The notes: generated by a model not told the origin, from the letters alone. A stretch of DNA of 32,000 nt from Trichlorobacter lovleyi SZ (GCF_000020385.1 NC_010814.1:2220001-2252000), one strand, 5' to 3'; positions 671 through 22,584 are shown, counted from the first letter of the stretch. Translations and numbers: made by a program.

Positions 671-682
671 GGCCCCTCCCCT

Positions 683-1315
<633 letters not shown>

Positions 1316-1316
1316 T

Positions 1317-1332
1317 TAACCTCACGGGGTTA
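1317..1332 (-). promoter_or_regulatory. Candidate PyrR-binding hairpin (anti-antiterminator element)
   Basis: The minus-strand RNA UAACC-CCGUGA-GGUUA forms a 5-bp stem with a CNGNGA-type hexaloop. This resembles the CAGAGA loop of the Bacillus PyrR binding loop UCCAGAGAGG (recalled from memory). It lies about 35 nt upstream of the terminator. Confidence 0.35.
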
Positions 1333-1390
1333 GATTAAAAGGCAGATATGAAAAGAAGTGAGCTACTCTACCACTCTCCAGCGAAAACGG

Positions 1391-3004: not shown

Positions 3005-3099
3005 AGTCCCCGTGTTTGTTGTATTCAAGTTTTTGCATCCTAGACCTGACCCGCAAAAAATGCAAGCGGACTGAAACTGTCTTGAGGTATACATTACCT

Positions 3100-3564
3100 A
3101 TGAAAACCTTCAACATTGTACTGATTGAGCCAGAAATACCACCTAACACCGGCAACATAGCCCGCCTTTGTGCAGCCACTGCTGCAACTTTGCATTTAGT
3201 CGGCAAACTGGGATTTTCCATTGATGATCGCTACCTGAAACGGGCCGGACTTGATTACTGGGACAAGGTTGACTTAAAGCGATGGGAGAACCTGGAACAG
3301 TTGCAGCAACAGCACCCGGAAGGCCGTTTCTGGTACCTCAGCACCAAGGTTGCCAGAAACTGCTATGAGCAGGGGATTTATCAACCAGGAGATTTTCTGG
3401 TCTTTGGCAAGGAAACCGCCGGCCTGCCGGCAGAGCTGCTACTGGCGAACCAGGAACGCTGCCTGACCATACCGATGCCGGGTCAGGTACGCAGCCTGAA
3501 CCTGTCAAACGCTGCAGCAGTGGTGCTGTATGAGGCATTACGTCAGACAGGACAACTACAGTAG
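3100..3564 (+). CDS. trmL: tRNA (cytidine/uridine-2'-O)-methyltransferase TrmL (SpoU/TrmH family)
   Basis: From MKTFNIVLIEPEIPPNTGNIARLCAA...RAGLDYW...FGKETAGLP...RSLNLSNAAAVVLYEALRQ the protein is near-colinear with E. coli YibK/TrmL as I recall it. The start was trimmed from the track ORF (3016) to the ATG at 3100. Confidence 0.9.
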   Translation: MKTFNIVLIEPEIPPNTGNIARLCAATAATLHLVGKLGFSIDDRYLKRAGLDYWDKVDLKRWENLEQLQQQHPEGRFWYLSTKVARNCYEQGIYQPGDFLVFGKETAGLPAELLLANQERCLTIPMPGQVRSLNLSNAAAVVLYEALRQTGQLQ

Positions 3565-3565
3565 C

Positions 3566-4432
3566 CTACACCCCATGCACCAATGAAAGAAAGAAGTCTT
3601 CCAGATTTTTCCGGCGTGGTTCAACCAGGACTATTTCACGACCAGTTGCGACCTGTTCAGCAAGAAAACGGTCAAGCAACTCTTTAGGCACCTCTTCATC
3701 CAGCACTGCTCCATCAGCATCCTTTAAACGGACCTGATAGCCAACTATGCCACGTGACATAATGGCATCCACCCGGTCCACCAGCTTTAGTTCACCATGC
3801 AGCAGAATACCTACACGGTCACAGACCTTTTCAACATCATCAGTAATATGGGTGCTGAAAAAAACAGATTTCCCGCGTTTTTTCAAATCAACGATAATTT
3901 CCTTCACCAGTGCCCGACCAATCGGGTCCAGACCACTCATCGGCTCATCCAGAATATAGACATCAGGATCATGAATCAGCACCTGCGCCAAACCGACCCG
4001 CTGCACCATCCCCTTGCTGTAGCCACGGATAGGACGCTTACGCGCTTCCCACAACTCAAGTTGTTTCAATACCTCTGCAGAGCGGCGGGTTAACAGTGCA
4101 TCAGGCATTTTGAATGTTTTACCCACAAACTGCAGATACTCTTCCGCTGTCAGATAATCATAAAAAGCCGGGTTCTCAGGCAAGTAACCGACATTACGAC
4201 GGGAAGCCTCTGACCCGATCGCCTCTCCCATAATTGAAGCAGTGCCGGATGTTGGCCGGATCAACCCCATCAAACATTTGATGGTCGTACTTTTACCGGC
4301 ACCGTTGGGGCCTAGAAAGCCGAACACCTCACCCTGCTCTATTGAAAGTGTCAGTCCCTTCAACGCCTCAACGGTCTGGCGTTTTTTACCTTTAAATGAT
4401 TTACTCAGACCCTGCATATCAAGAGCGTACAT
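3566..4432 (-). CDS. ABC transporter ATP-binding protein (ABC-2/DrrA-type exporter ATPase)
   Basis: It has Walker A GPNGAGKST, the signature YSKGMVQRV, Walker B ILDEPMSGLD and an H-loop (STH). A strong SD (GAGGTGA) lies 4-5 nt upstream of the ATG at 4432. Confidence 0.9.
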   Translation of the reverse strand: MYALDMQGLSKSFKGKKRQTVEALKGLTLSIEQGEVFGFLGPNGAGKSTTIKCLMGLIRPTSGTASIMGEAIGSEASRRNVGYLPENPAFYDYLTAEEYLQFVGKTFKMPDALLTRRSAEVLKQLELWEARKRPIRGYSKGMVQRVGLAQVLIHDPDVYILDEPMSGLDPIGRALVKEIIVDLKKRGKSVFFSTHITDDVEKVCDRVGILLHGELKLVDRVDAIMSRGIVGYQVRLKDADGAVLDEEVPKELLDRFLAEQVATGREIVLVEPRRKNLEDFFLSLVHGV

Positions 4433-4441
4433 CAGCTCACC

Positions 4442-5308
4442 TCACTTATTTTTTGTTGCAAAAGCAAACTTGCTGGTTGTTGTCACCTTGCCGGAGGGTT
4501 CAAGATAGAATCTTCCACCGTAGGGATCTGCCGGTGCCGGAGCAAGCAAACCGAGCTGCACCAATTGTTCAACAGAGACGGGTAAACCGCCATGCTCTGC
4601 CATAAATCTATCCCTTGCAATTTCAATTCGCTTGACTTCATAGAAGGCTGCCAACCGGATCTGGTAGTCTTTTTTTATAGATTGGTTTCTCTCACCTTTT
4701 TCAATAACTGTCAGATAGGCAATAGCCAAATCTGTCTGCCCTGATTCTTGCATATAACGTCCGGCAAGACTCTTGTGCAGTTCTTGACCACTTAAATCAG
4801 CGGCTCTCTTGTAATATGCAGCAGCTTTTGGATAGTCCTTTAAAAAATAGGCACTATTAAAGCCGGCAAAAAACGGTAGATACCAGTCCCAAGTACGGTA
4901 TTTCATACCGTAGTCAAGCAAGTCGTTAGCAACCTTAAACTGTTTGGCATCCCACGTTAGAAAACCTTGTGCGAAATAGTAGGCATCCATATTGTAGGGG
5001 TCTAGTTGCACAGCACCATGCAGCAATCGAGACATTCCCTGCAAATCAAGCGGCTCGCTGATCACCTTATCCTCTTGAGCCTTGCCTATAATGCCACCAA
5101 AGTACATCAACACCTTCATCACCAAAGATGCGCCTACCAACTCCTTTTGATCAGCACTCAGCGGCTTCAGAAGCTTCACACTGGGGACATATCCAAGCTT
5201 CTCCTCAATCGGCTTATTGGCCATATACGAGGAAAAAGGAACTATCAGCAGTCCATAGCAAAGCAGACCGCTAACCAGCAAAGCAACCGGAATACGCAGG
5301 CTGTTCAC
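4442..5308 (-). CDS. Membrane-anchored TPR-like protein encoded inside the ABC-2 exporter operon
   Basis: The 288-aa ORF has an N-terminal TM segment (IPVALLVSGLLCYGLLIV) followed by TPR-like helical repeats (DPYNMDAYYFAQGF..., YPKAAAYYKRAADL..., DLAIAYL). Its GTG start overlaps the permease stop (GTGA), and a 9-nt gap separates it from the ATPase gene. Confidence 0.6.
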   Translation of the reverse strand: MNSLRIPVALLVSGLLCYGLLIVPFSSYMANKPIEEKLGYVPSVKLLKPLSADQKELVGASLVMKVLMYFGGIIGKAQEDKVISEPLDLQGMSRLLHGAVQLDPYNMDAYYFAQGFLTWDAKQFKVANDLLDYGMKYRTWDWYLPFFAGFNSAYFLKDYPKAAAYYKRAADLSGQELHKSLAGRYMQESGQTDLAIAYLTVIEKGERNQSIKKDYQIRLAAFYEVKRIEIARDRFMAEHGGLPVSVEQLVQLGLLAPAPADPYGGRFYLEPSGKVTTTSKFAFATKNK

Positions 5309-6099
5309 TTCATTTCCCTCCGGTTAAACAGCAGAGCTGCACTACCCAGCAAAATGGCAGTGTAGCCAGCAAAGTAGCCCACAGTCATCGCAAGTCCTTG
5401 TGGATTGGGGGCAATACTGTATATCGCGTTCACCTTCAGATCAAATCCAGCCAGATTAGGCAACAGGTAATAAACGACTGACGCGACAGCCTTTAAAAAC
5501 GGTGAAACCGCCTGCACCGATGCCGTAGAGTGTACAAATTCATAGACTTGTTGAGTAATGCTACTGGCCAAAAATGTGCAGATGGAGCCAAAAACTGGCA
5601 AAAAGAAGGAAGTACTAACCGTGGAAAGCAGCATTGCCACTGCTACCAGCAGGATATACTTAAAGGTGATGAACAGTAAGGTCAGTAGCAGATAATTCCA
5701 GACAACGGGACGAGCAGGAGGATACATTCCTGACGCCACCTTGATCACCAGTAACGAAACCGCTCCAAGTACGGCTGAAGTCAGTATTAGGAACAGGGCC
5801 AAGCCCAAAAAACGGCCTAGCAGATAAGAACTACGGCTAAGAGGCAGGCTAAGTACGCTAAAGGTATAGCGTCGTTCCATATCCCTCCAGAGCGAGGTTG
5901 CCCCCAAAAAGACTGAAAGAAGCAACAGAATAAACGAGATCAGTGAAAGCGAGAGTGTAATAGAAAGCTCGGTTACCTGACGCATAGAAAGCGAGGCAGC
6001 TGAAGGAATAAAAAGAAACAAAACAGCCAAGGCCATGATCCCTTGGAATACTCGATCTCGAAAGATACCTATAAGCGTAATCTTCATAATGTTGGTCAT
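5305..6099 (-). CDS. ABC-2 family transporter permease
   Basis: The product is a polytopic hydrophobic protein with about 6 TM segments. It is translationally coupled to the downstream TPR gene and the ATPase. I prefer the ATG at 6099 (GGAG 8-11 nt upstream) over the TTG at 6117 used by the track. Confidence 0.75.
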   Translation of the reverse strand: MTNIMKITLIGIFRDRVFQGIMALAVLFLFIPSAASLSMRQVTELSITLSLSLISFILLLLSVFLGATSLWRDMERRYTFSVLSLPLSRSSYLLGRFLGLALFLILTSAVLGAVSLLVIKVASGMYPPARPVVWNYLLLTLLFITFKYILLVAVAMLLSTVSTSFFLPVFGSICTFLASSITQQVYEFVHSTASVQAVSPFLKAVASVVYYLLPNLAGFDLKVNAIYSIAPNPQGLAMTVGYFAGYTAILLGSAALLFNRREMK

Positions 6100-6184
6100 A
6101 AAAGCTACTCCGTTCAACTACAATATTATAGATTGATCCTGCCCACCATCGACACCGAAGTCCCTCAAGCAAAATTTAGATCTA

Positions 6185-7060
6185 TCAAAGCAAACCTTGT
6201 ATTAAGTCAGCAAGCTCTTGATTTGTTTTACGAATATTTTCCAAGTACTGCTGCGCCTTCTTGACCTTGCCTGCACTACCGAGCAACCTAATCAGGCCGC
6301 AATGCGCCTGAAATGACTCATTATCAAATTTTAAAGCACTTCTATACATAGTAAAAGCTTTAGCAAACTTATCATTTTTTTGGTAGAAATCTGCCATCAT
6401 CAGATACTCATCAACCCCAGCCATATCACGCTCTAGCAGCTGTTCACAGAATCTGATCGCTTCTACAAACTGCCCCAATTCCCAACATTCAGAGGCTATT
6501 TCAGCAAGATACAAACTTTCATCAACATGTTCTCGCTTTATAAGTCTCGCTTGAATATCACTTACAGCGTTAACATAATGCCTAATGGCAAATTTCTTTT
6601 CTTCTTCGCTTTTCTCTTGCCAATAAGGGTCCAAAAGCAAATTACAATCAAAATTAAAATCAACAGTCAGGGGATAGTGATCTAATCGGTTAATAAGTCT
6701 CCATTTTTTACTAAAATAATAAAAAGTTGCCTCTGATATAGCCCTGAGGTGAGTGGGATCCTGCCACGCCCTGATACTGGAATAATAAGGGGCGATAATT
6801 TCAGCTTTCGCGCCTACTTTCATAATGCGATACAGTTCATTAATAAAGGCGATGAGATCAGGAGTATGCTCAATGTAATGAGAGCAGAAAACCTCATCAA
6901 CACTATTATCTTCAAAAGGCCATGGGAATTGCCATAAATCAACGACAATATCCGCCCCCTCCCAAAGATCTACACCAACAAAACCGGGACGTTTGTTTTT
7001 CCCACACGCGATATCTAGCTTCAGCTCTCTTTGAATATCATCTCCAGCTATTTGCTGCAT
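6185..7060 (-). CDS. Class I SAM-dependent methyltransferase fused to a C-terminal TPR-like domain
   Basis: The N-terminal half has motif I LDIACG, post-I VGVD, and VDEVFCSHYIEH (Methyltransf_11/23-like). The C-terminal roughly 100 aa are TPR-like helices (GQFVEAIRFCEQLL..., DKFAKAFTMYRSALKFD..., GKVKKAQQYLENI). The start overlaps the stop of the upstream gene by 13 nt. Confidence 0.7.
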   Translation of the reverse strand: MQQIAGDDIQRELKLDIACGKNKRPGFVGVDLWEGADIVVDLWQFPWPFEDNSVDEVFCSHYIEHTPDLIAFINELYRIMKVGAKAEIIAPYYSSIRAWQDPTHLRAISEATFYYFSKKWRLINRLDHYPLTVDFNFDCNLLLDPYWQEKSEEEKKFAIRHYVNAVSDIQARLIKREHVDESLYLAEIASECWELGQFVEAIRFCEQLLERDMAGVDEYLMMADFYQKNDKFAKAFTMYRSALKFDNESFQAHCGLIRLLGSAGKVKKAQQYLENIRKTNQELADLIQGLL

Positions 7061-10000
7061 TTGTAGTCACTCCATATTTTATCAAGTGCGCTTTCAAAAG
7101 ATCGGGCAAAAAGTTCACCATCAAACAACGAAGAGTTGATAAAACATTCACGGATAGACTGTCGAAAATTTGGACGCTGGCAAATATTCTCAGCTAACAT
7201 AACCGCCCGATCAATATAATCGTTTCTATCTCTTGCAACTAGCTCTGATAATCCGATCCGATTTAAAATTGATGCTCCAACTCTTCCCGCATGTCGATCA
7301 CCTGTAAAAGTGACCACAGGGACCCCCATCCACAAGGCCTCACAGGTTGTAGTTGTACCATTATAGGGAAAGGTATCTAATGCTATATCGACATGCTGGT
7401 ACATACAAAGGTGTTCCTTGATATCGGGGGCTGCTGGTAACAAAATAATCCTATCCGATGTAATTCCAAACGCTGCAAACCCATCATAAAACTTTTGTTG
7501 TATAGATTGATCGGAGAAAAACCAGTTTTTCAACATTATGACTGAACCTTCAACTCTGTTAAGAATTGTAGCCCATGTTTCTATTACATAAGGAGACGTT
7601 TTAGAAATATTGTTAAATGAACCAAATGTGACACATCCTTTTCTGATACAAGGAAAGTCAGTAACATTTGGTGCCTCTTTCGGCGGTTCGTAACATAAGA
7701 AACCTTCAGAAAGTCTAACTAGCTTTTCAGTATACCATCTATCATCACCATCTACAGGGTCTGCTATATCGTCAGTAAATCTATAATCAATCTCTGTTAG
7801 GCCTGTAGTATTGGGGTAGCCCAACCATGAAACTTGTATAGGACTCGGCTTTGCAGCAAACACCTCCAACCTGTTTCTAGAAGTGTGACCCGCCAGATCA
7901 AATAAAATATGCACATGATTTTCTTTAATAACTTCAAACAACTCCTGATGAACAATGCCAAACACCTCATGCCATTCATCTGCATATGATTGCAAACGAT
8001 TTGTTACTTGGTCATTTTTAATTACATCAGAAAAACATACAATTTCGTATTTTTTCTTATCCAGATGACTAAATAACGGACCAAGAAAATAGGCCACAGA
8101 GTGTTTTCTAAAATCAGGCGAAACAAATCCAATTCTTAACTTCTCAGGTACGACAGCATCCTGGACTAACAAATCATTGTAATCAAGCGCACTTGCTTGC
8201 CACCCTATATACTGTTTCCAAGCAACACTTCTCGTATAGTATTCTTCCTGCGTGACTTTTGGAGTATAATTCATAAAAAGCAATTGGTTTGATCTAATAT
8301 GAAGCCTCTCGGGCTGTAATGCATAGGCCTTGTCATATGATTTACTTGCCTCAGACATGTTACCGCAAACCATTTGCAAACTTGCCTTATTATTCCATGC
8401 CTCAGCGTAACGATCTTCAATCTCAAGGGCCTTATCAAAACACTCAAATGCTTTGTTCAGCTGTCCAAGTGAGGAATAAACGAGCCCCAAGCTGTTGTGT
8501 GCAATAAAATTATTTTTGTCTAAAGCAATCGCCTTCTTAAACAATTTTTGGCTCGAGAGAGGATTATTTCGTTCCCTAGTGAAGTTCCCTTGTTGAGTAC
8601 ATAACTGTGCATACTCTATAGCTTGGTGAGTATTTTGTTCACCGCCCCCCCATAACTGAAACAGTAACTCTTCAACATCATGTGCGAACCTTCTCCCATC
8701 GCAAAGCGGAGAGTTAAGTAAAGCTGGACGTAATGAGTCTCGAAAAAACTGCAGTTTTTCAAGGTCAAAAGACAACTTTACTGCTGTTTCAATATATTCA
8801 TCTTTATTTGTTGTAACAAGTTCATAAAGCCCTAGTAAATCAAGAAATGTTTTGGTTTGCCTGCTTATTGGGGTAGTACCAGCCAGTGTAATTATTGGGA
8901 CCCCCATCCACAAAGCATTCAAACTTGTCATGCCTCCTGTAAAGGGAAATGTATCCAGCATGATATCAATATCTCCGTGTTCCATAAGCATGAGATATGG
9001 AGATGAAAATGTCCGAAACTCAATCCTACGGGGAGAAACTCCATACGTCGAAAATAGCTCTCTAAATCTTCGCCGAACAGACACATCCTTAAAGGTACTA
9101 AATTTTAAAACTAAACGGGACTTCGGCACCCTCTTCATAATATCAGACCATACTTCAACTACATTTTCTGAAATTTTCAAAGGATTGTTGAAACTACCAA
9201 AAGTTATGAATTCTGAATCAAGACAAGGAGATTCAACTACTTCTGGGCTAGGTGATGGTTGCACAAAACAAAAGCGGCTATACGGCAGACATACAACCCG
9301 TTCAACGAACCACTGTTCATCTTGCGGCTGTATAAAATCATTATCTGCAATTATATAGTCAATCGAATCCAGACCAGTTGTATGCCCGTATCCCATCCAT
9401 GTCATTTGAATAGTCGCTGGCCGAAAACAAAAAATCTGTATCCTGCTCTTAACGGTATGACCAGCAAGATCGATTAATATATCAATTTTATCGTTTCTAA
9501 TTATTTCAGCAGCGTCCTGATCACTTAAGGCCGTAATATCTCGCCATATAGCTGCTTTTTCTTGATAGCTATCGGTTATCTGGTCATGCCTACTACCGTT
9601 GCTATAACAAAACAATGAAAGTCGTTCAGAATTATAATTCTGGAACAGAGCAAGCAATAAAATACCAACCGGATGATGACAAAAATCTGGAGAGACAAAA
9701 CCAACTCGCAACAGCTTTTTCTTCTTACGCGGAAGACAGTCACTCCAAGGTTCAGCGTCAAGCTCTAAAACATCGGCTACTTGCCTGGACAGTTCAAAAA
9801 CATCACTTTGTTTGGCAGTAGCATCATAAAACAGAAACGACATCAAGGTTGTCAGCATCTCATAGTTAAAAGGAGATATCTCAACGCCTCTTTTAAGTGT
9901 CTGGACAGCCTTGGAAATATCACCCATTGCACCTTGGGCAAGCGCAAGATTTCCAATCGCCCCTAAATGATCGGGCGCTAGTTCTAGCGCACGCTCACAA

Positions 10001-12192
10001 CAAACTACTGAATCATGTATACGATCAAGAATCCTGTTAACAATACCCAGATTAACTAATGCGTGAGTATTTTCAGGACAAAGTTCAAGCACCTTAAGAA
10101 GATGCTTCCTGGCAAGCTGATGCCTAGCCACAGATAAGTACAGAATTCCAAGTTGCAGCCTAGACTCAAAACGTTTTGGATAACGTCGAACTCCAGCACG
10201 ATACATGCTTATGGCTTTTTCCAGCTGACCAAGTTTTTTATAAGCACCAGCCAACAGATTAATTGCTTCATAATGAGCCGGCTCTCGCTTAAGTAACTCT
10301 GTGAGCAATCTGATTGTATACTCTGGGTCTTCATCATTCAGAGCAACAGCCCCTGAAGAATAGAGTTCTTCAGGACTAAAATGTTCCAAAGATGCAGGAG
10401 AATCGCAATTTGTTTGCCAGTTTTCTAAAATTTCCTTATACAGAGTCTCCATGTTTTTAGCAAAAGCAAGGCCATCACATAAAGGGGAGCTTGCCATTTC
10501 TCTTCTCAAGTTCCTCCTCATTAATGACAATCTGTTTGGATCTAAAGCAAGATTTTGAGCAATTTGAACATAATCGTCTAAGGTAGACGCCACCAATTCA
10601 TGATGATCTATGGCATACAAAAATGCTTTGCTTTGACGACTAATAGGGGTTCCCATCTCAAGAGTAACAACCGGAACTCCCATCCAGAGTGCTTCACAAG
10701 TACTAGCGCCACCATTGTACGGAAAAGGGTCCAGAGCTATATCTATTTCTCCGTATTCCTGAAGCATTTCATAGTGAGACGATAATTTTTTAAAAATAAT
10801 CCTGTTAGACGAAATACCATGTATTTTAAAACGACGTATAAAATCATCTACAACGACATCATCACTGAAAGATTTGGATTTGAGAAGCAGCTTTGAATGA
10901 GATACGGCATGTAAAACTCTAGACCACGCATCAACAACCTCTGCCGTTAGTTTGTGGATTGAGTTAAAGGAGCCAAAGGTAATATATCCATTTTTCAAAC
11001 ATGGAGCGGCAGTTGTTGGAGGAGTGTAGGGCATCGGTTCATAACAGAACCTGCACACAGGCAATCGAACAATCTGCTCCGCAAAAAACAGATCATCCTT
11101 CAAAGGGATTGTAATCGGATCGCTAATAAGATAGTCAATGGATTCCAAGCCTGTGGTATTAAAATATCCCAACCAGGTGACTTGCACAGGAGCCGGTTTT
11201 TGAGCAAAGAGTCCTAACCTGTTGAACCCAGTATGACCGGCAAGATCCACCAGAATATCAATACAATCACAACGGATCAACTTTGCAGCCTGAGTATCTG
11301 ATAAGTTATATATATCCCTCATGGCTGCGACATTGCCGGCCAATGTCTCGGTAACCTCGTCTCTCAAAGGAAATGAGTTGTAGAGATATATTTCAAACGT
11401 GTCTTTGTCATGATTTAGAAGGAGTGGTTTTAAATAGTAAACAACCGGATGCAGCTTAAAATCACCTGAGACATAGCCAACTCTAATTTTACGTTCCCTG
11501 CATACAGAATTTAAATATCCGCGATTAGATCTATTTTGATTATCGTAATTTTTTTGTGCCAGTTGCACTGTTTTTTGATAAATATCCTGCTGGCTGAATT
11601 CCGGTAGTAGGTTCATTGTAAATAAAACACTAGATATCAGAGCATCTGTTGCCCGTAATTTCACCCCGTGACTAAAATAAGTGTATGCTTCTTCTGGCTT
11701 ACCAAATGAAAGCATAAGACTACCCAAATTTTGATAATTTAACGCAATGTCAGGGCAAAGCTGCAATGCTTTGGTGCAAAACTCTTGTGCCTCTTCTGTC
11801 TCTCCCTTGGTAATCAACACTGACGCAAGTAATGCCATTGTTTTTGCATTTTCAGGTGCGAGTTTCAGCACTTGCCTATAAAGCTGCTCAGACTCTTCAA
11901 AGAGGAGCATTCCAGACAGAATAACACCCAGATTTTGCAAGGCATCCGCATAACCTGGCTTAAGTTTTATTGCCTCACGAATGAGCTGTTCGCCGACTTC
12001 AAATTCACCAGTCCTGTAGCGAAGCATTCCCATCGCATGCAGGATTCTTGGATTATCATGAAAAGCAACTGACAACTCTTCACAAATTTTTAAGGCATCA
12101 TGCAACTTGCCACTATCCGCAAGTCCATTAATTAGCTTAAACTGTTCATCTATAGATGTTTCACTGATCTTCGTTACATTTTTTAAGTTCAT
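7048..12192 (-). CDS. Giant protein with three tandem TPR + GT41 (O-GlcNAc transferase / SPINDLY-like) glycosyltransferase modules
   Basis: The 1714-aa ORF contains three colinear repeats. Each has TPR helices followed by R(V/I)G(Y/F)VS.DF..H.V ... DLAGHT...F...P.P(V/I)Q(V/M).W.GY..TTGL..IDY ... TFGSFN...K ... D.(F/P)PY/F.G..T...ALWMGVP(V/I)(V/I)T ... SPLCDG/SSLFDG. These closely parallel human OGT segments as I recall them (GYVSSDFGNHP; RPAPIQAMWLGYPGTSG; FNQLYK; GHTTGMDVLWAGTPMVT). Confidence 0.8.
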   Translation of the reverse strand: MNLKNVTKISETSIDEQFKLINGLADSGKLHDALKICEELSVAFHDNPRILHAMGMLRYRTGEFEVGEQLIREAIKLKPGYADALQNLGVILSGMLLFEESEQLYRQVLKLAPENAKTMALLASVLITKGETEEAQEFCTKALQLCPDIALNYQNLGSLMLSFGKPEEAYTYFSHGVKLRATDALISSVLFTMNLLPEFSQQDIYQKTVQLAQKNYDNQNRSNRGYLNSVCRERKIRVGYVSGDFKLHPVVYYLKPLLLNHDKDTFEIYLYNSFPLRDEVTETLAGNVAAMRDIYNLSDTQAAKLIRCDCIDILVDLAGHTGFNRLGLFAQKPAPVQVTWLGYFNTTGLESIDYLISDPITIPLKDDLFFAEQIVRLPVCRFCYEPMPYTPPTTAAPCLKNGYITFGSFNSIHKLTAEVVDAWSRVLHAVSHSKLLLKSKSFSDDVVVDDFIRRFKIHGISSNRIIFKKLSSHYEMLQEYGEIDIALDPFPYNGGASTCEALWMGVPVVTLEMGTPISRQSKAFLYAIDHHELVASTLDDYVQIAQNLALDPNRLSLMRRNLRREMASSPLCDGLAFAKNMETLYKEILENWQTNCDSPASLEHFSPEELYSSGAVALNDEDPEYTIRLLTELLKREPAHYEAINLLAGAYKKLGQLEKAISMYRAGVRRYPKRFESRLQLGILYLSVARHQLARKHLLKVLELCPENTHALVNLGIVNRILDRIHDSVVCCERALELAPDHLGAIGNLALAQGAMGDISKAVQTLKRGVEISPFNYEMLTTLMSFLFYDATAKQSDVFELSRQVADVLELDAEPWSDCLPRKKKKLLRVGFVSPDFCHHPVGILLLALFQNYNSERLSLFCYSNGSRHDQITDSYQEKAAIWRDITALSDQDAAEIIRNDKIDILIDLAGHTVKSRIQIFCFRPATIQMTWMGYGHTTGLDSIDYIIADNDFIQPQDEQWFVERVVCLPYSRFCFVQPSPSPEVVESPCLDSEFITFGSFNNPLKISENVVEVWSDIMKRVPKSRLVLKFSTFKDVSVRRRFRELFSTYGVSPRRIEFRTFSSPYLMLMEHGDIDIMLDTFPFTGGMTSLNALWMGVPIITLAGTTPISRQTKTFLDLLGLYELVTTNKDEYIETAVKLSFDLEKLQFFRDSLRPALLNSPLCDGRRFAHDVEELLFQLWGGGEQNTHQAIEYAQLCTQQGNFTRERNNPLSSQKLFKKAIALDKNNFIAHNSLGLVYSSLGQLNKAFECFDKALEIEDRYAEAWNNKASLQMVCGNMSEASKSYDKAYALQPERLHIRSNQLLFMNYTPKVTQEEYYTRSVAWKQYIGWQASALDYNDLLVQDAVVPEKLRIGFVSPDFRKHSVAYFLGPLFSHLDKKKYEIVCFSDVIKNDQVTNRLQSYADEWHEVFGIVHQELFEVIKENHVHILFDLAGHTSRNRLEVFAAKPSPIQVSWLGYPNTTGLTEIDYRFTDDIADPVDGDDRWYTEKLVRLSEGFLCYEPPKEAPNVTDFPCIRKGCVTFGSFNNISKTSPYVIETWATILNRVEGSVIMLKNWFFSDQSIQQKFYDGFAAFGITSDRIILLPAAPDIKEHLCMYQHVDIALDTFPYNGTTTTCEALWMGVPVVTFTGDRHAGRVGASILNRIGLSELVARDRNDYIDRAVMLAENICQRPNFRQSIRECFINSSLFDGELFARSFESALDKIWSDYKCSK

Positions 12193-14083
12193 GTTTCAAT
12201 AGCCCCAGATTTTTTTTGCCTTTGGGTGATTTCTCAGAAATAATCGTTACAGCCGCATCAAAATATTGTTTGGCCGCCTCACATTTATTTATCTGTGTTG
12301 AAGCAATTATGCCTGAATAAAAAAGATTTAGATCTTCAGACAGCCTGTAATGTTCAACAAGATATTCAAGTTCAAGACCTTTCAATACTACATCGTATTT
12401 TGTTCTTGCTGAAATCTGTTCATCCTGCATCTCTCTAATTAGTAAAACTGTAGCTTTTAAAGTAGAAACTAGATTTCTGGATTTACGAGCCAACGCCTTT
12501 TGATACAGACATAATGCCGTATTATACATCTTCTTTTCCCTTAACTTTGAAGCGATCATCACTTCCGCCTGTTCGTCAAAGTCAGGAGATGGCAGCAGGG
12601 TCGATGCATCAGAATATTCGTCCAGAGCTTCATCCGTAAACCCTTTTTCAACCAAAGCATGTATATAAATATTTCTCAATTTTCTTATTTTCTGATTTTG
12701 TGACACCGTATCCTGAAAGAGTGTCACATTGGACACCCAGGTTTGGTTACGGCTAAAGGTTATACAAGCAGCTATTAAGCAGATGGATGCTAAAAGCGCA
12801 TAAATATAACGTGACGGAAATGTTTTGATGTTTTGTATTTTTTCAATCCAGAGGCATAATCCAATTATAAAAAATGCAGTTGAAAGGTAAATATACCGCT
12901 CGGCATATGCTGTCCATGCAATAGTACCAAAAACAAAAGGCAAAGCAGGTAATAATAGACTTAAACCGAGCAATAAAAAAATAGATGCCAATGTACGCTT
13001 ATGCAATAAAAATGCAGTTAAGAGCAAAACAGCTATACCAATGAAGTCGTATAATGGATCTATTTCAAGTATAAAAAAATTTAATGGCAAGGGTATAAAA
13101 AACTTCTTTACATAAAAACCTAGTGCACCAATGAACATTGATAGTGTGTAGTTTTTATCAGCTAGCATCAGGATGATTGTTTGCGATATTTTATTGACGC
13201 TAGACAGAAAAACAACCTGGCGTATCAGAAAAAACAGACCAACTGCTACAGACATAAATATAATTAATAAAACAAATTTTTTCCAAAAAACTGCTGATAA
13301 AAAATTAATTCCATTTTTGTAATCAGTAGAAACTATATGTAGAAAATATAAAAGCACCAGAACTGCTACAGCCCAATAACATCCAGTGAACAATGCGACT
13401 AGAAACGAAATAGAATAGTAGCCAAGGTATAAACGCCAATCAAACAAGCGTGTTTCTTGTATAGCCCCATCAGAGCGCGTATATATTACCAGCAACGAAA
13501 CTCCAATCAGAAAGCCAAAAGCGGCTTCTTTTGCTAAAAGAGCAAAAAAAACCGCAATAATAGAGACTAGCAATGCAATCTTTGACTTCTTGTGTAAAAA
13601 ATATAGATACGACAATGTGCCCGCAAGAATAAACGTACCCATCATAACATCGGTTCTGCCAGACAACCAGTTCACTGATTCAGTGGTAATGGGATGCAGT
13701 GTAAAAAGAAGAGCTGAAAAAAGCGGCAAATAATATATATGCTGCCTGTTTACAAGATTAAGCGCAGTTCTGGTAATATAAAAAACTAAAATGCCGTTTA
13801 AAAGGTGTGCAACAACACTCTCAAAATGCATAATCTGATGTTGTAAAAACCATAGTTTTTTATCAAGCAGGTAGCTTAAGCCAATTAATGGCCGGTAGTA
13901 CCCTCCCCCCATATTCTGAGGCGAAAAAATATTACGTAGAGAACTGGTATCACTACCAAATACGCCAGCTAAAGCGCCCAGGTCATCAACAAGGCAAATT
14001 TCGCCAAACTGAGTTGGATAAAACACCAGTAGAACTAATGCACTAATCGCCATAATTTGAAACGTAACAGACAATTTTTGCAT
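12161..14083 (-). CDS. GT-C fold membrane glycosyltransferase (TMTC/PMT-like) with C-terminal TPR domain
   Basis: The 640-aa ORF has roughly 10 or more TM segments. An acidic DD motif follows TM1 (EICLVDDLGAL), then YYRPLIGLSYLLD and HPITTESVNWLSGRTDVMMG, a pattern typical of TMTC/PMT-family enzymes (D-D/E loop, YRPL, HP..TE.V.W...R.D). The last roughly 170 aa are TPR-like. The stop overlaps the next gene's start by 32 nt. Confidence 0.75.
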   Translation of the reverse strand: MQKLSVTFQIMAISALVLLVFYPTQFGEICLVDDLGALAGVFGSDTSSLRNIFSPQNMGGGYYRPLIGLSYLLDKKLWFLQHQIMHFESVVAHLLNGILVFYITRTALNLVNRQHIYYLPLFSALLFTLHPITTESVNWLSGRTDVMMGTFILAGTLSYLYFLHKKSKIALLVSIIAVFFALLAKEAAFGFLIGVSLLVIYTRSDGAIQETRLFDWRLYLGYYSISFLVALFTGCYWAVAVLVLLYFLHIVSTDYKNGINFLSAVFWKKFVLLIIFMSVAVGLFFLIRQVVFLSSVNKISQTIILMLADKNYTLSMFIGALGFYVKKFFIPLPLNFFILEIDPLYDFIGIAVLLLTAFLLHKRTLASIFLLLGLSLLLPALPFVFGTIAWTAYAERYIYLSTAFFIIGLCLWIEKIQNIKTFPSRYIYALLASICLIAACITFSRNQTWVSNVTLFQDTVSQNQKIRKLRNIYIHALVEKGFTDEALDEYSDASTLLPSPDFDEQAEVMIASKLREKKMYNTALCLYQKALARKSRNLVSTLKATVLLIREMQDEQISARTKYDVVLKGLELEYLVEHYRLSEDLNLFYSGIIASTQINKCEAAKQYFDAAVTIISEKSPKGKKNLGLLKHELKKCNEDQ

Positions 14084-14109
14084 ATTCGGCCTTGTTTGAG
14101 ATATTTGCT

Positions 14110-14150
14110 AAAAAAAAGGGTTGGCACAAAATAGCCAACCCTTTAAAAAA
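14110..14150 (-). terminator. Strong (bidirectional-looking) intrinsic terminator immediately after the PilA-C-like gene
   Basis: The minus strand reads UUUUUUUAAAGGGUUGGC-UAUUUUGU-GCCAACCCUUUUUUUU. The GC-rich core stem is 8 bp (GGGUUGGC/GCCAACCC) and can extend by A-U pairs, and a U8 tract follows. It sits 16 nt after the pilA-C stop and about 27 nt before the next ATG. Confidence 0.75.
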
Positions 14151-14165
14151 ACTATAACCTTGAAA

Positions 14166-14525
14166 CTACATAGAAGTCCAATCAGTTCCCGTAAAACTTG
14201 TATTTGTGGCAATTGCTGATGCAACAGACGTAGCATTTCCAGGGGTTGTTGTCTTAAAATAGAGCTTTGCATCACTCTGGTTACTTGCAATGGCCTTATC
14301 CCCCTGACCATGGGCAGCAGCAATACCGTATGCCGTACCAGCAAAACCGGTAGAAACACCTGAGTCAGATACATAGTAGGCGCTAACCTTGTTAGATGAA
14401 GAAAAACTACTACCTCCTACAGATGTAGCACCGGAAAGAGTAAGAGTTGCAGCATAAGAAGCAGAAGCTGCAACCATACTGAGAACAACCACAACAGCTA
14501 ATTTTAGCATATTTTTCTTTGCCAT
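14166..14525 (-). CDS. PilA-C-like secreted Ser/Thr/Gly-rich protein (second half of a split Geobacter-type pilin)
   Basis: The 119-aa ORF has a Sec signal peptide (MAKKNMLKLAVVVVLSMVAASASYA|AT). The mature part is about one third Ser+Thr by my count (31/94). An AAAGGAG SD lies 8 nt upstream, and the gene is 43 nt downstream of pilA-N with no terminator between them. Position and size match the PilA-C (GSU1497-type) partner of truncated geopilins. Confidence 0.75.
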   Translation of the reverse strand: MAKKNMLKLAVVVVLSMVAASASYAATLTLSGATSVGGSSFSSSNKVSAYYVSDSGVSTGFAGTAYGIAAAHGQGDKAIASNQSDAKLYFKTTTPGNATSVASAIATNTSFTGTDWTSM

Positions 14526-14568
14526 GATTTAATATCTCCTTTCTTGGAAAACTTAAATAAAAATGGAC

Positions 14569-14781
14569 TTAGGAACCAGGATATCCTTGACGATCTGCAA
14601 AAACAGACTCAAGAACGGTTTTCAGGTTACGCAAATCACTGGTTGCGTTTGAATTGTAACCCTTGATACGATAGGTTGTAAACTGGGGGATGGCCACGGC
14701 TGCCAGGATGCCGATGATCGCCACAACGATCAGCAGCTCGATGAGGGTGAAGCCTTTTCTGTTCCGAATCTTGTTTAGCAT
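14569..14781 (-). CDS. pilA: Truncated type IVa pilin PilA-N (geopilin)
   Basis: The sequence is MLNKIRNRKG|FTLIELLIVVAIIGILAAVAIPQF..., with a class III signal peptide, the G|F cleavage site and Glu5. The 60-aa mature protein has aromatics at F1, F24, Y27, Y32, F51 and Y57, the same positions as G. sulfurreducens PilA as I recall it. An AAAGGAG SD is present. Confidence 0.93.
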   Translation of the reverse strand: MLNKIRNRKGFTLIELLIVVAIIGILAAVAIPQFTTYRIKGYNSNATSDLRNLKTVLESVFADRQGYPGS

Positions 14782-14804
14782 AGATTCTTCTCCTTTCTGG
14801 TTGT

Positions 14805-14822
14805 CCTGCTGTATATAGCAGG
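14805..14822 (-). promoter_or_regulatory. Perfect 6-bp inverted repeat / 5'-UTR hairpin upstream of pilA-N
   Basis: CCTGCT-GTATAT-AGCAGG lies between the predicted sigma54 promoter and the SD. Its function is unknown; mRNA stability or an operator are possibilities. Confidence 0.3.
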
Positions 14823-14866
14823 TGTAAATTTAAACTGACTACTTAGTTGGAATCAGCTAAAGTTTA

Positions 14867-14882
14867 AGCAAAATACAAGCCA
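14867..14882 (-). promoter_or_regulatory. Sigma54 (RpoN) -24/-12 promoter for pilA-N
   Basis: The minus strand reads TGGCTT-GTATT-TTGCT against the consensus TGGCAC-N5-TTGCW. GG and GC have correct spacing and 9 of the 11 specified consensus positions match. It lies about 85 nt upstream of the pilA-N ATG. Geobacter pilA is known to be RpoN/PilR dependent. Confidence 0.6.
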
Positions 14883-14964
14883 ACATAAAAAAAGAACTAA
14901 CTATCAGTCTTCACGCAACTTTATCCATCCATATTGGAAAACAGTCTAGCATAGGCATGCTGTT

Positions 14965-14992
14965 TGTCAAGCCGCGCTGACATTTTTTGTCA
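14965..14992 (-). promoter_or_regulatory. Candidate enhancer-binding-protein site (TGTCA-N8-TGACA palindrome plus a third TGTCA half-site)
   Basis: The sequence is TGTCA(14965-69)-AGCCGCGC-TGACA(14978-82)-TTTTT-TGTCA(14988-92). It lies about 85-110 bp upstream of the -24/-12 element, the usual UAS distance for NtrC-family activators. Confidence 0.3.
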
Positions 14993-15179
14993 ACGACGTT
15001 CACTTCAACCATATAAGCTGATTGAAGTGGTTGCGGTTTTTGAGACATGAGTATTATCAACGAACCAATCCCCTTAAAAGGAGAGGTCCCATGCAGCACC
15101 GCACCCGTTTCTACCCACTCAATTCGACAAAGAACCTTTTGTTCTTTAAGCCTTACTCTACCTACGGCACCAAAAAACT

Positions 15180-16820
15180 TCAATATCTCTGCTCCATCCT
15201 GGGCACATACCACCTGATCAGATTATGCCCAATCCCAGCAGGGGCAGGCTCTATGCCGCGAATACGAGACGAAACAACCGGCAGCGCATCTGGCACATAA
15301 AGGAAGGTGTAGGGTTGTTCCTCAGCCAGGATATCCTGAATCCGGTAGTAGGCCTGTTTACGTTTTTCAATATCAAAGGTGCTACGCCCTTCTTCCAGCA
15401 GACGGTCCACTTCAGGGTTGTTGTAGCCGATAAAATTCAGCTCCCCTGGTTTGGTCTTGCTGGAATGCCAGATGTCGTACATATCCGGATCCTGTGAGGT
15501 AAGCCAGGCCAGCAGCACCACCTCAAAATTACCTTTGTCAATAAACTCTTTCAGGAAAGCAGCCCATTCCACAACCCTGATCCGTACATCAATTCCGACC
15601 TGTTTCAGGCGTTGCTGAATAATCTGGGCTGTCATCAAGCGTTGCTGATTCCCCTGGTTTGTCAGGATGGTAAAACGCAGCGGTTTGCCGTCTTTTTGCA
15701 AAAAACCGTCCGGTCCGGCCTGCCATCCCGCTTCTGCCAGCAGCTGCCGGGCATAGGCCGGGTCATAGGCAATATCCTTCACATTCGGGTTATGCGCCCA
15801 TCGGCCTGGTATCATCGGACCATTGGCCTTTTGTCCCATGCCAAACAGCACCCCCTGGATCAGTTCCTGTTTGTTGATGGCAGCGGTTATGGCACGACGG
15901 ACACGTGTATCTTTGAACGTCGGATGGCGCAGATTGTAGCCAAGGTAGAGGTAGCCATTTGACGGGTAACGATATTTGTTAAAGGCAGATTTGAAACGCG
16001 ACGAATCGGTCTGCCTGGCAAATTGCACCGGGGTCAACCCCATCTGATCAATGCCGCCAGCCTTCAGCTCCATATACATGGTGGAAGTATCAGGAATCAA
16101 ACGAAAAACGTATCGATCAAGATAGGGACGCCCTTCAAAGTAGTCCTTGTTGGCCTCCAGCACGATTTTCTGGCCAGCCACCCACTCTGCAAAACGGAAC
16201 GGCCCGGTGCCGACAGGCTTGCGGGCCAGTGGACTCCTGGTGATATCCTGTCCTTCCAGTAGATGGCTGGGCAGGACCGCCACGCCCCACGAGGCAAGGG
16301 ATGGCGCATAGGGCCTTGCATAACGTACCACCACAGTATGAGCATCCGGTGCCGCAACCGCAGCAACCTGTTTGAAGTCTTCTGAATAGGCAGTGGGGGT
16401 TTTGGGATCAATAATGACACGGTAGGTATAGAGCACATCACGTGACGTAAACGGCTTGCCATCATGCCAGGTGACGTTACGACGCAGCTTGAAGGTAATG
16501 GTCAGGCCATCGGATGAGACCAGATATGATTCTGCAAGGTCACCGACAATTTTGAGGTTTTTGTCGTATTTTATCAGGCCGTTGTAGATCAGACCTGCCA
16601 CGCTGTGGGAGGCACTGTCAGAGGCAAGAATGGGGATCAGGGTGGATGCTTCACCAATGGTACCCTCAACCAGCGTGTCGCCGTAGGCCGGTGGTGCTGC
16701 AGAAACGTTCTGCTTGGCGGGAGGGGCCTCACTACCTGTGCAGGCTGCACACAGCAGCCAGAGAACAACCGGTAAGGTGGCACGCAGACAGAAGCTTCGA
16801 AACCCGCCCTTTACGGTCAT
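15180..16820 (-). CDS. ABC transporter substrate-binding lipoprotein, family 5 (peptide/nickel/opine type)
   Basis: The 546-aa ORF has a lipobox (LLCAAC|TGS) and family-5 SBP-like sequence throughout (e.g. GPFRFAEWVAGQKIVLEANKDYFEGRPYLD, PDMYDIWHSS). It overlaps the upstream TPR gene by 4 nt. Confidence 0.88.
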   Translation of the reverse strand: MTVKGGFRSFCLRATLPVVLWLLCAACTGSEAPPAKQNVSAAPPAYGDTLVEGTIGEASTLIPILASDSASHSVAGLIYNGLIKYDKNLKIVGDLAESYLVSSDGLTITFKLRRNVTWHDGKPFTSRDVLYTYRVIIDPKTPTAYSEDFKQVAAVAAPDAHTVVVRYARPYAPSLASWGVAVLPSHLLEGQDITRSPLARKPVGTGPFRFAEWVAGQKIVLEANKDYFEGRPYLDRYVFRLIPDTSTMYMELKAGGIDQMGLTPVQFARQTDSSRFKSAFNKYRYPSNGYLYLGYNLRHPTFKDTRVRRAITAAINKQELIQGVLFGMGQKANGPMIPGRWAHNPNVKDIAYDPAYARQLLAEAGWQAGPDGFLQKDGKPLRFTILTNQGNQQRLMTAQIIQQRLKQVGIDVRIRVVEWAAFLKEFIDKGNFEVVLLAWLTSQDPDMYDIWHSSKTKPGELNFIGYNNPEVDRLLEEGRSTFDIEKRKQAYYRIQDILAEEQPYTFLYVPDALPVVSSRIRGIEPAPAGIGHNLIRWYVPRMEQRY

Positions 16821-18517: not shown

Positions 18518-18700
18518 GGAACACCACCCAGAATTCAGCAGGTTGCAGAAATAATTAAGTATTAAACGCTACCATACAACCGGACGAGCGTCAAACGATT
18601 CCGTTGAAAGAAGATTTCATCGGCCTTCGGTTGCGTGTGGTATGGTTCGATGGTAAGATTTCACGCGTCTGATCTGAACTTGAAAGGAGCTGTATGCCCC

Positions 18701-18964
18701 ATGTGGCACTCAACCAGACATAGAATTCTCAGACGGCTGCATTTGCGGGAGTCATGGGTGATCTTCTTTGTACTGGGAAATGTCATGCTCAACTTCCCGT
18801 TTCTTAAAATATTCAATCAACCCAGCACATTATTCGGATTCCCTCTACTGTATCTCTATTTCACGGTCGGTTGGGCCATTTCAATCGGTGTCATCTATCT
18901 GTTTGCCAGTTCGGTTGAGCCGGAGCCCGGTGATCAACAGTCAGAAGAGCAGGCCCCGCCGTGA
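18701..18964 (+). CDS. Small two-TM membrane protein (DUF3311-like companion of solute:sodium symporter-type domains)
   Basis: The protein MWHSTRHRILRRL...WVIFFVLGNVMLNFPFL...FGFPLLYLYFTVGWAISIGVIYLFA has two hydrophobic helices. An AAAGGAG SD at 18683-18689 lies 11 nt upstream of the ATG at 18701. Its stop overlaps the GTG of the next gene (GTGA). The start is uncertain, since the track ORF begins at 18635. Confidence 0.6.
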   Translation: MWHSTRHRILRRLHLRESWVIFFVLGNVMLNFPFLKIFNQPSTLFGFPLLYLYFTVGWAISIGVIYLFASSVEPEPGDQQSEEQAPP

Positions 18965-22209: not shown

Positions 22210-22226
22210 TTGAAAGGAGGAACGCA

Positions 22227-22562
22227 ATGAATCTGAAGCTTGAAGACAACGGACAGGTGGTGCTGCTGATCGTCAAGGAGGAACGGCTCGATGCCCATAA
22301 TTCTGAACATCTTAAACAGGAATTGGGCAGATTGTTCGGAGAGGGCAAGGCCAGGGTGGTGGTTGACCTGAAAGAAGTACGTTTTATCGACAGCTCAGGC
22401 TTGGGTGCGCTGGTATCAGGCTTCAAGAATGCTTCGGCCCGGCAGGCCGCCTTGAAACTTTCAAGCCTGCAGAGCCAGGTAAAATCGATGTTTGAGCTTA
22501 CCAGACTGCACCGGGTATTTGACATCTACACCACCGTTGATGAGGCAATTGAGGCGTTCTGA
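22227..22562 (+). CDS. STAS-domain anti-sigma-factor antagonist (RsbV/SpoIIAA-like)
   Basis: The 111-aa ORF has the conserved phospho-acceptor context FIDSSGLGALV. GGAGG lies upstream of the ATG, and the gene starts 17 nt after the phosphatase gene. Confidence 0.88.
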   Translation: MNLKLEDNGQVVLLIVKEERLDAHNSEHLKQELGRLFGEGKARVVVDLKEVRFIDSSGLGALVSGFKNASARQAALKLSSLQSQVKSMFELTRLHRVFDIYTTVDEAIEAF

Positions 22563-22584
22563 GCAGGACGTACGGAGAGCAGCG

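Follow-up and report, generated by a model that had tools for sequence, protein, structure and literature searches.

What is a low-G+C block of modification genes doing beside the pilin genes of Trichlorobacter (formerly Geobacter) lovleyi SZ? The question is raised by a 32,000-nucleotide (nt) stretch of its DNA (NC_010814.1, 2220001-2252000; here called the window, in whose numbering all window coordinates are given), in which three genes at 6185-14083 encode a glycosyltransferase (GT) of the GT-C type, a triple GT of family GT41 and a methyltransferase (MT), each joined to tetratricopeptide repeats (TPRs). A first, sequence-only reading had taken this block for a self-contained and probably imported island, wedged between split pilin genes and an ABC-2 exporter, and had named the pilins and the exporter as its likely clients. 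Geobacter-type pili, built of PilA-N and PilA-C, are central to a long dispute over conductive ‘e-pili’ and secretion pseudopili, and their surface chemistry has been assumed to be that of plain protein. The analysis presented here gives the locus a different outline, as the unit that changes between strains covers ~6099-15176 and includes the pilin genes themselves. With moderate confidence, we read this unit as one allele of a hypervariable pilin-plus-modification cassette, whose enzymes most likely glycosylate and methylate the split pilin.

The limits of the cassette emerge from comparison with CP058409.1 (locus L085), a complete genome of the T. lovleyi group. In a blastn comparison the two sequences are 90.9% identical over window positions 1-6098 and 90.2% identical over 15177-24033, and between these breakpoints the sole remaining match is a 210-nt stretch of pilA-N. 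On one side of the cassette CP058409.1 carries genes for a radical S-adenosylmethionine (SAM) protein, a SpoIIE protein, a TPR protein and a substrate-binding protein (SBP), and on the other side genes for an ABC-2 permease, a 288-residue (aa) protein, an ATPase, SpoU and SerA. These flank proteins are 92-99% identical to those of the window (permease 92%, 288-aa protein 94%). The interior, conversely, has been replaced: it holds two pilA-N genes (85% and 66% identity), a gene for a 106-aa PilA-C (39%), and a gene for a 1753-aa triple GT41 protein (34%) placed ahead of that for a 649-aa GT-C (38%), so that the gene order is changed, and the gene for the methyltransferase-TPR protein (MT-TPR) is absent. 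The replaceable unit of ~6099-15176 thus includes the pilin genes, whereas the ABC-2 exporter is conserved flank and lies outside the cassette. An exporter that remains 92-94% identical at the protein level while the cassette changes completely lends no support to its being a client of the enzymes.

Two further relatives extend this picture. The sister contig L084 shares the window's allele type (PilA-C 89%, a triple GT41 protein of 1714 aa 85%, MT-TPR 91%) next to a more distant ABC-2 flank (83%), and L007 has a third allele type between flank proteins that are 82-90% identical. Compared with window positions 7048-14083, L084 1268-8315 is a mosaic in which GT-C (64%) and residues 1-700 of the GT41 protein (64-87%) have diverged further than GT41 units 2-3, MT-TPR and PilA-C (88-98%), a pattern suggestive of diversifying selection acting locally or of a recombined tract. 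The same contig has at 9211-10614 an extra gene for a 467-aa FkbM-type methyltransferase between MT-TPR and the permease, where the window has an 85-nt spacer (6100-6184).

Among more distant genomes, the association of pilins with GT-C recurs. A search with a GT-C family profile, taking one genome per species, yielded 80 loci from taxa that include the Geobacterales (Geobacteraceae, Geomonas, Oryzomonas), the Desulfuromonadales (Desulfuromonadaceae), Desulfobulbales-type metagenome-assembled genomes, the Nitrospirota and the Thermodesulfovibrionales. The pilA-N gene of T. lovleyi (14569-14781, minus strand, as are all genes of the cassette and of the ABC-2 module) encodes a truncated type IV pilin of 70 aa (Pfam N_methyl, E=7e-11; NCBIfam prepilin-type cleavage/methylation domain), and a copy that is 62-89% identical to it lies within 10 kb of GT-C in 65 of the 80 loci. 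When the ABC-2/288-aa module is accepted as well as, or in place of, pilA-N, the number rises to 73, and most of the exceptions are contig-end cases or distant paralogues. Nearly always pilA-N is followed by a gene for a signal-peptide protein of 105-130 aa with 20-30% Ser+Thr; its T. lovleyi counterpart is a PilA-C-like secreted protein of 119 aa (14166-14525), with a Sec-type signal peptide and a mature part that is 33% Ser+Thr. In most of the 65 pilA-N loci, too, GT-C is directly downstream of the pilins. GT-C and the ABC-2 module occur together in 58/80 loci, with GT-C preceding the transporter in 32 and following it in 18, and the 288-aa protein is always found with the permease and the ATPase. 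The core module therefore is PilA-N, PilA-C, GT-C, the ABC-2 permease, the 288-aa protein and the ATPase. This removes GT-C from any island wedged between pilins and exporter, as it is a conserved partner of PilA-N and PilA-C across phyla, at the position of xapA in Geobacter sulfurreducens, and the replaceable unit takes in the pilins. The linkage in 65/80 loci and the co-replacement in CP058409.1 do favour the pilins as the likely clients, which is a prediction from sequence.

Around this core the other enzymes come and go. GT41 proteins are found in 24/80 loci, with one to five units per polypeptide and a length of up to 3040 aa (L013), and MT-TPR in 6/80. In other genomes the slot holds TylF O-methyltransferases, FkbM methyltransferases, a TPR-methyltransferase of reversed domain order, extra PMT_2 GT-Cs, a GT2 or radical-SAM proteins. 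The TylF, FkbM, PMT_2 and GT2 enzymes among these are sugar-modifying, which fits a role of the slot in pilin glycosylation.

A ~200-aa protein with an N-terminal ‘LNVGGNxK’ motif recurs beside GT-C or GT41 genes in six loci (L005 16427-17044, L008 11935-12564, L013 11901-12506, L018 4869-5489, L019 5318-5923, L024 6829-7428); the sole member scanned, that of L005, has no Pfam match and is possibly a divergent SAM methyltransferase. In the close relative L007, positions 13769-16134 encode another PMT_2 GT-C and, after it, a GT2 of 243 aa, a pairing typical of a polyprenyl-phosphate-sugar synthase plus the GT-C that uses its product.

The base composition of the block invites another explanation, namely that a mobile island of foreign origin, with no relation to its neighbours, was recently inserted. 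Positions 6185-14083 have a G+C content of 0.390, compared with 0.518 in the remaining window, and G+C at third codon positions is 0.31-0.36 in the three enzyme genes versus 0.49-0.61 in their neighbours. Windows of 500 nt average 0.392 +/- 0.025 inside (n=17) and 0.521 +/- 0.031 outside (n=45; Mann-Whitney p=1.6e-9), and the two sets do not overlap (inside maximum 0.432, outside minimum 0.442). Tetranucleotide usage correlates at 0.72-0.77 between the block and its flanks and at 0.84-0.91 between flank and flank. The compositional break claimed at this block is hence evident in the sliding-window, codon-position and tetranucleotide analyses alike, and its sharpness is what speaks for an island. 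The edges of the trough are at ~5950-6100 and ~15050-15200, where they coincide with the homology breakpoints; as they extend past 14083, the low-G+C tract takes in both pilin genes and exceeds the upper coordinate first given for it. Moreover, in many relatives (loci L002-L030) the pilin/GT-C/GT41 module is 3-15 points below the G+C of its flanks (for example, 0.39-0.43 vs 0.57 in L021 and 0.43-0.45 vs 0.55 in L016), with the GT-C gene usually lowest, so low G+C is a long-standing property of the locus and not the mark of a single recent transfer. GT-C occupies the same position in dozens of genomes of several phyla, and the slot in the sister genome is filled by a different cassette and is not an empty site. 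Neither tRNA genes, nor boundary repeats, nor an integrase or transposase were found in scans of the window and of the open reading frames (ORFs) scanned, and the mobile-element reading was rejected on these grounds; we regard it as highly improbable. Conserved flanks, a replaced interior and the lack of mobility genes point instead to a hypervariable cassette that is exchanged by recombination in its flanks.

What, then, do the enzymes of the cassette look like? The gene that follows the pilins (12161-14083) encodes a 640-aa protein with ~11 transmembrane (TM) helices in residues 1-448 and a C-terminal TPR domain at ~452-640. Searched against Pfam, the protein gave no match even at E<=1, neither to PMT_2 nor to TMTC_DUF1736, and an NCBIfam scan gave nothing useful; its UniRef name is ‘Glycosyltransferase RgtA/B/C/D-like domain’. 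Its family is more informative, as 7 of 29 members match PMT_2 (best E=3e-6), 3/29 match GT-C_AftD and 23/29 match TPR_2. Aligned with 29 homologues of 32-64% identity, the protein has as invariant residues D33 D34, Y63 R64 P65, R143/D145, K185 E186, P382 and E395 R396 Y399, while P379 is kept in at least 90% of the homologues. The ligand-binding motifs M1-M7 of the TMTC proteins are DD, SHKSYRP, RxD, KE, DW, PxxP and ERxxY (PMC7801869), and the conserved residues correspond to six of these seven (M1-M4, M6 and M7); motif M5, ‘DW’, was sought in the protein and not found. D33-D34 follow TM1 (residues 6-20 of the AlphaFold2 model) in the first extracytoplasmic loop, which is the place of TMTC M1.

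The structure leads to the same family. In Foldseek the matches of the full-length model were mostly TPR proteins, and the TM domain was therefore modelled alone to obtain a clean result (residues 1-460; mean predicted local distance difference test 82.9, predicted TM-score 0.88). Against the Protein Data Bank (PDB) the top eight matches of this model are all GT-C enzymes, including STT3A, PglB, yeast Stt3 and ArnT, at probabilities of 0.92-1.0, although the TM-scores are modest (0.29-0.48, with Pmt4 at 0.48), and non-GT-C matches have probabilities below 0.2. The family profile finds only TPR proteins among PDB sequences (consensus TPR, E=8e-15, and the TPR domain of OGT), the model shows residues 452-639 as helical hairpins, and by the hydrophobicity profile the last TM helix ends at ~445, ahead of the TPR domain. 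Identification as a TMTC/PMT-like GT-C is the weakest of the fold claims for want of a Pfam match of the protein's own, yet it is well supported, and the GT-C fold and TPR domain proposed from sequence were recovered at family level and by structure. Motif mapping, which puts M7 in loop EL5 followed by two further TM helices, indicates that both the DD loop and the TPR domain are probably periplasmic.

Two characterised groups of GT-C enzymes share this architecture. We take metazoan TMTC1-4 to be CAZy family GT105. These enzymes, which O-mannosylate proteins and have 11 TM helices and TPRs in the lumen, resemble the T. lovleyi GT-C in layout and in six of the seven motifs; it differs in the lack of ‘DW’ and of any TMTC_DUF1736/PMT_2 match, in being bacterial and pilin-linked, and in a donor that would be a bacterial polyprenyl-phosphate sugar. 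Full-length prokaryotic TMTC homologues have been described, one of them from a Deltaproteobacterium (PMC7801869). The nearer parallel is TfpW, a GT-C pilin D-arabinofuranosyl/oligosaccharyl transferase that is required for pilin O-glycosylation in the group IV pilin strains of Pseudomonas aeruginosa. TfpW, of 646 aa, spans the membrane with 11 TM helices and bears a DDX motif and, at its C terminus, a TPR, both of them periplasmic; its gene is the one directly downstream of pilA. The species has five pilin alleles, each with accessory genes of its own, and TfpW goes with one of them (bioRxiv 10.1101/2020.04.19.049825). The T. lovleyi GT-C shares with it size (640 vs 646 aa), the ~11 TM helices, the DD motif in the first periplasmic loop, the TPR, the position after the pilin and the linkage to a pilin allele. 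The likeness is drawn from position, size and architecture, with the TfpW motif YX6PFX7P of periplasmic loop 4 matched in part (Y324-X6-P331-L-P333...P343). In T. lovleyi, unlike the TfpW strains, the pilin is split into a PilA-N and a PilA-C part, and a GT41 and a methyltransferase stand alongside.

The next gene (7048-12192) encodes a soluble giant of 1714 aa. Pfam Glyco_transf_41 matches it with E=3.1e-155 and 517.9 bits (cutoff 25) in six stretches, that is, three units of two lobes each, and matches to TPR_1, TPR_2 and TPR_8 precede each catalytic domain. Units 1 (10393-12192) and 2 (8638-10392), each comprising TPRs and a catalytic domain, are of the His-Pro type, and unit 3 (7048-8637), with three TPRs, is SPINDLY-like in keeping His-Ser, the Lys and Y-x-G-T-T-T. 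Mutual identities of 35-36% indicate that the units are old duplicates or fusions and not the product of recent tandem duplication. SPINDLY (SPY) H495, corresponding to human OGT (hOGT) H558, is the active-site His of this family, and SPY K665/hOGT K842 its essential Lys (PMC9715652). Their equivalents, H248 and K414 in unit-1 numbering, are invariant in all three units, as are LAGHT, TFGSFN and ALWMGVP blocks, so the three TPR-bearing GT41 units reported earlier stand, each with its catalytic residues. The best PDB matches of the protein are SPY, TtOGT, human OGT, XcOGT and HMW1C, and residues 10-526 of unit 3 align with residues 328-844 of Arabidopsis SPY (phmmer E=1.4e-127). The residue at the SPY Y744 position has been proposed as a gauge of donor size, with Tyr or Phe linked to donors smaller than N-acetylglucosamine (GlcNAc; PMC9715652). 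Units 1-3 have Tyr, Phe and Tyr here, and none of them has the Cys found in the OGT that uses GlcNAc, which hints that the units may take sugars smaller than GlcNAc; diverged as they are, the three probably differ in donor or site. No hydrophobic segment is present in the protein (19-residue Kyte-Doolittle maximum 1.39).

Large GT41 arrays are not peculiar to this locus. The triple GT41 as a unique feature had to be abandoned, as arrays of one to five units occur at the 24 related loci and multi-unit giants are widespread, also outside the clade that bears GT-C. At related pilin loci, L013 764-9886 has five units in a single 3040-aa ORF, L008 41-6220 has at least four units in more than 2059 aa (the gene ends at the contig end), and L024 1068-6803 has three units in 1911 aa. 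Elsewhere, multi-unit GT41 is fused to Methyltransf_11 (P0246, P0289, P0302, P0306, P0312, P0327, P0349, P0356), and in P0303 a sulfotransferase domain (PF00685) takes the place of Methyltransf_11. By Rosetta-stone reasoning, the fusions with Methyltransf_11 suggest that the two enzymes act in one pathway. We know of no defined substrate for bacterial multi-unit SPINDLY-like GT41, though no search for one was made.

The commonness of such giants leads to the view that GT-C alone acts on the pilus, and that GT41 and MT-TPR, which happen to share the variable slot, modify other proteins, be it in OGT/SPY-like regulation or on another secreted protein. The core module evidently works without GT41, as 56 of the 80 GT-C loci lack it, and the composition of PilA-C does not track its presence. 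The gene arrangement argues otherwise: in 23 of 24 loci the GT41 gene has the orientation of the pilins and either directly adjoins the pilin, GT-C and ABC-2 genes or is interspersed with them (in L047, the one exception, it is on the opposite strand upstream of pilA-N), and in CP058409.1 GT41 has been replaced together with the pilin allele. There is also a precedent in Ogt of Synechococcus elongatus PCC 7942 (Synpcc7942_0051), a cytoplasmic TPR-GT41 encoded two genes from pilA and required for PilA glycosylation (PMC9306852). The T. lovleyi protein resembles it as a cytoplasmic TPR-GT41 beside pilA, with the Lys (K414 and equivalents) kept in all three units; it differs in having three fused units with a Tyr/Phe/Tyr gauge, while the Synechococcus enzyme is a single unit, is reported to use GlcNAc, and has no described GT-C partner. 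On balance, a division of labour that leaves GT41 and MT-TPR out of pilin modification seems to us quite unlikely.

Other relatives of the GT41 protein bear on its chemistry and on the timing of its action. Unit 3 resembles Arabidopsis SPINDLY, a protein O-fucosyltransferase, in the equivalents of H495, S496, K665, Y744 and T747-T749; unlike SPINDLY, the bacterial chain has three units, of which units 1 and 2 are OGT-like (His-Pro) and altered at the T-T-T positions. The HMW1C/NGT-HMW1 adhesin and FlmG-flagellin systems offer soluble transferases that glycosylate a surface protein in the cytoplasm before secretion, as would be the case here. HMW1C is a GT41 that makes an N-linked hexose, FlmG combines an N-terminal, substrate-binding TPR with a GT-B domain, has pseudaminic acid as its sugar and is not known to be a GT41, and the acceptors and export routes differ from those proposed for T. 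lovleyi.

The third gene (6185-7060) encodes a 291-aa class I SAM methyltransferase (residues ~10-170) with C-terminal TPRs (~180-290). The match to Methyltransf_11 reaches 30.8 bits (cutoff 21.2), aligned over profile positions 55-91 only, TPR_14 and TPR_19 are above cutoff, and motif I (LDIACG) is followed by the acidic VGVDL; the methyltransferase and TPR assignments made from sequence were thus recovered by Pfam and by motif I. The protein lacks any hydrophobic segment. There are ~70 homologues of 280-300 aa and more than 1000 that carry PF08241, and stand-alone methyltransferase-domain homologues of 180-200 aa (~60% identity), found in unannotated clusters that include a GT2, offered no clue to function. 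With GT41 and MT-TPR free of hydrophobic segments and the DD loop and TPR of GT-C mapped to the periplasm, the two-compartment topology first envisaged for the system holds.

From the folds, the catalytic motifs, the linkage to pilins, the replacement of the cassette and this motif-based topology, a pathway can be proposed, though its acceptor and sugars, the sequence in which the enzymes act and the force of selection behind it are all conjectural. The cytoplasmic triple TPR-GT41 would O-glycosylate the pilin from nucleotide sugars, most plausibly on the Ser/Thr-rich PilA-C before Sec export; the cytoplasmic MT-TPR would methylate, and so cap, the installed sugar, or possibly the protein; and GT-C/TPR in the inner membrane would move a sugar from a polyprenyl-phosphate donor onto Ser/Thr of the pilin in the periplasm. 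Lineages would trade cassettes through homologous recombination within the flanking SBP gene and ABC-2 permease, both conserved, and such exchange is proposed to account for both the low G+C and the diversity of alleles; the selective force might be, for example, a pilus-specific phage.

A number of observations sit uneasily with this pathway. A strong intrinsic-terminator-like hairpin of 11 pairs (6 of them GC) with a T run lies on the minus strand at 14115-14144, within the 82 nt between pilA-C and the start of the GT-C gene, and parts the pilin genes from the enzyme genes, whose expression would consequently depend on read-through or on a separate promoter; a scan for sigma-70 promoters was uninformative, as it found fewer sites than in shuffled sequence. 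At related loci the Ser/Thr content of PilA-C is no different with GT41 than without it (0.265 vs 0.241, p=0.25), and any differences in PilA-C motifs are confounded by phylogeny. The literature searched contains no report of a glycan on Geobacter PilA-N or PilA-C, it is unusual for a Sec substrate to be glycosylated in the cytoplasm, and the comparison of GT-C with TfpW is one of architecture, size and position. Nor is the system self-contained, as had been supposed: neither a polyprenyl-phosphate-sugar synthase for the GT-C donor nor a known flippase is encoded in the window. Finally, the G. sulfurreducens xapD mutant has been described as an exopolysaccharide mutant.

The last point introduces the main rival, in which the enzymes form an exopolysaccharide pathway of the Xap type: GT41 and the methyltransferase would build or cap a glycan, ABC-2 would export it, GT-C would polymerise or ligate it outside, and the pilins would be mere neighbours. 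In G. sulfurreducens, GSU1498-1508, directly downstream of pilA-C, are called the extracellular anchoring polysaccharide cluster, for which xapD is needed. The gene table of that species lists pilA, GSU1497 (small, secreted), xapA (GSU1498, a 582-aa ‘membrane protein’), xapB (a membrane protein of 263 aa), xapC (284 aa) and xapD (an ABC ATPase). By order and size, not by sequence, T. lovleyi has the same series: GT-C stands at the xapA position, and the ABC-2 module comprises a permease at the xapB position (5305-6099; Pfam ABC2_membrane_2, with a likely ATG start at 6099 after GGAG), the membrane-anchored 288-aa protein at the xapC position (4442-5308), which has no Pfam match, and an ATPase of 288 aa at the xapD/GSU1501 position (3566-4432; Pfam ABC_tran, E=3e-30). 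In the synteny with GSU1496-GSU1501, which had been put forward as a test of insertion, GT-C is no insertion, and GT41 and MT-TPR are not found between xapA and xapB in G. sulfurreducens. There the genes continue with xapE-K (a phosphoglycosyltransferase, GTs, a second ABC-2 exporter and an FkbM methyltransferase), and it is these glycan-assembly genes that are missing at the T. lovleyi site; among the ORFs of the window no undecaprenyl-diphosphate-glycan assembly genes were found, as the sequence-only reading had remarked. The co-occurrence of GT-C with the ABC-2 module in 58/80 loci and the TylF and FkbM methyltransferases in the slot of other genomes, both typical glycan modifiers, would suit a polysaccharide. 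Yet every characterised GT41 (OGT, SPY, HMW1C/NGT) acts on proteins, all three enzymes bear TPRs, which are protein binders, a carbohydrate-binding extension is lacking from the ATPase, and enzymes and pilins have been exchanged as a set next to an exporter that remained constant. An exopolysaccharide role for the enzymes is, in our estimate, unlikely.

The preferred reading, in which the enzymes modify the split pilin, can be set against what was known. The literature searched yielded no characterised system in which one pilin is served by a GT-C together with GT41 units and a methyltransferase, and in this respect the statement that no such pathway has been characterised survives; for each half taken separately it does not, as TfpW and Synechococcus Ogt are direct precedents. 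If the function is as proposed, the principle would not be new, each half having a characterised precedent. In any case, these pilin genes move in company with a TfpW/TMTC-like GT-C that is conserved, and in many lineages with cytoplasmic GT41 arrays and methyltransferases besides, and the whole is swapped between close strains.

A bolder generalisation, advanced here tentatively and with more doubt than belief, is that Geobacter-type pili are glycoproteins of a two-compartment pathway, in which GT41, together with MT, acts on PilA-C before Sec export and GT-C then adds a second, polyprenyl-phosphate-derived sugar, pilin and enzymes being exchanged jointly as allele cassettes. If this were true, XapA (GSU1498), for which literature searches found no function, would be a pilin glycosyltransferase, part of the Geobacter ‘Xap exopolysaccharide’ and pilus phenotypes would reflect pilin glycosylation, and the triple enzyme would become the first multi-catalytic GT41 for which a bacterial substrate is defined. 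Three questions have become testable, namely whether the pili are glycosylated, whether xapA has a role in pilin modification, and what multi-unit SPINDLY-like GT41 proteins do, and the locus offers a tractable bacterial model for GT-C enzymes of the TMTC type.

Some features of the gene layout remain to be described. The enzyme genes are packed with the out-of-frame overlaps first reported for them, at exactly the coordinates claimed. At 12161-12192 (32 nt), the 640-aa ORF ends in TGA (12161-12163) and the downstream ATG is at 12192; at 7048-7060 (13 nt), the 1714-aa ORF ends in TAG (7048-7050) and the next ATG, at 7060, is preceded by GGAG. These upstream start codons are credible because tblastn matches of relatives to the 1714-aa protein begin at residues 2-3 and L084 keeps the overlaps (29 and 13 nt).

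Ahead of the pilins, a putative sigma-54-type -24/-12 element (TGGCTT-N5-TTGCT, GG-N10-GC) can be read on the minus strand at 14867-14882, ~85 nt upstream of pilA-N. Neither pilR nor pilS adjoins pilA in the T. lovleyi window; in G. sulfurreducens pilR precedes pilA.

Beyond the ABC-2 module are housekeeping genes for a SpoU/TrmL-type methylase, SerA and a phosphoribosyltransferase, and upstream of the cassette are genes for an SBP_bac_5 protein and a TPR lipoprotein. Further upstream, positions 18961-23016 hold the gene for a membrane protein of 1082 aa that combines GAF and SpoIIE/PP2C domains, and after it small genes for a STAS protein (anti-sigma antagonist) and an HATPase_c_2 protein (anti-sigma kinase), which together resemble a partner-switching module and are 98% conserved in the sister genome.

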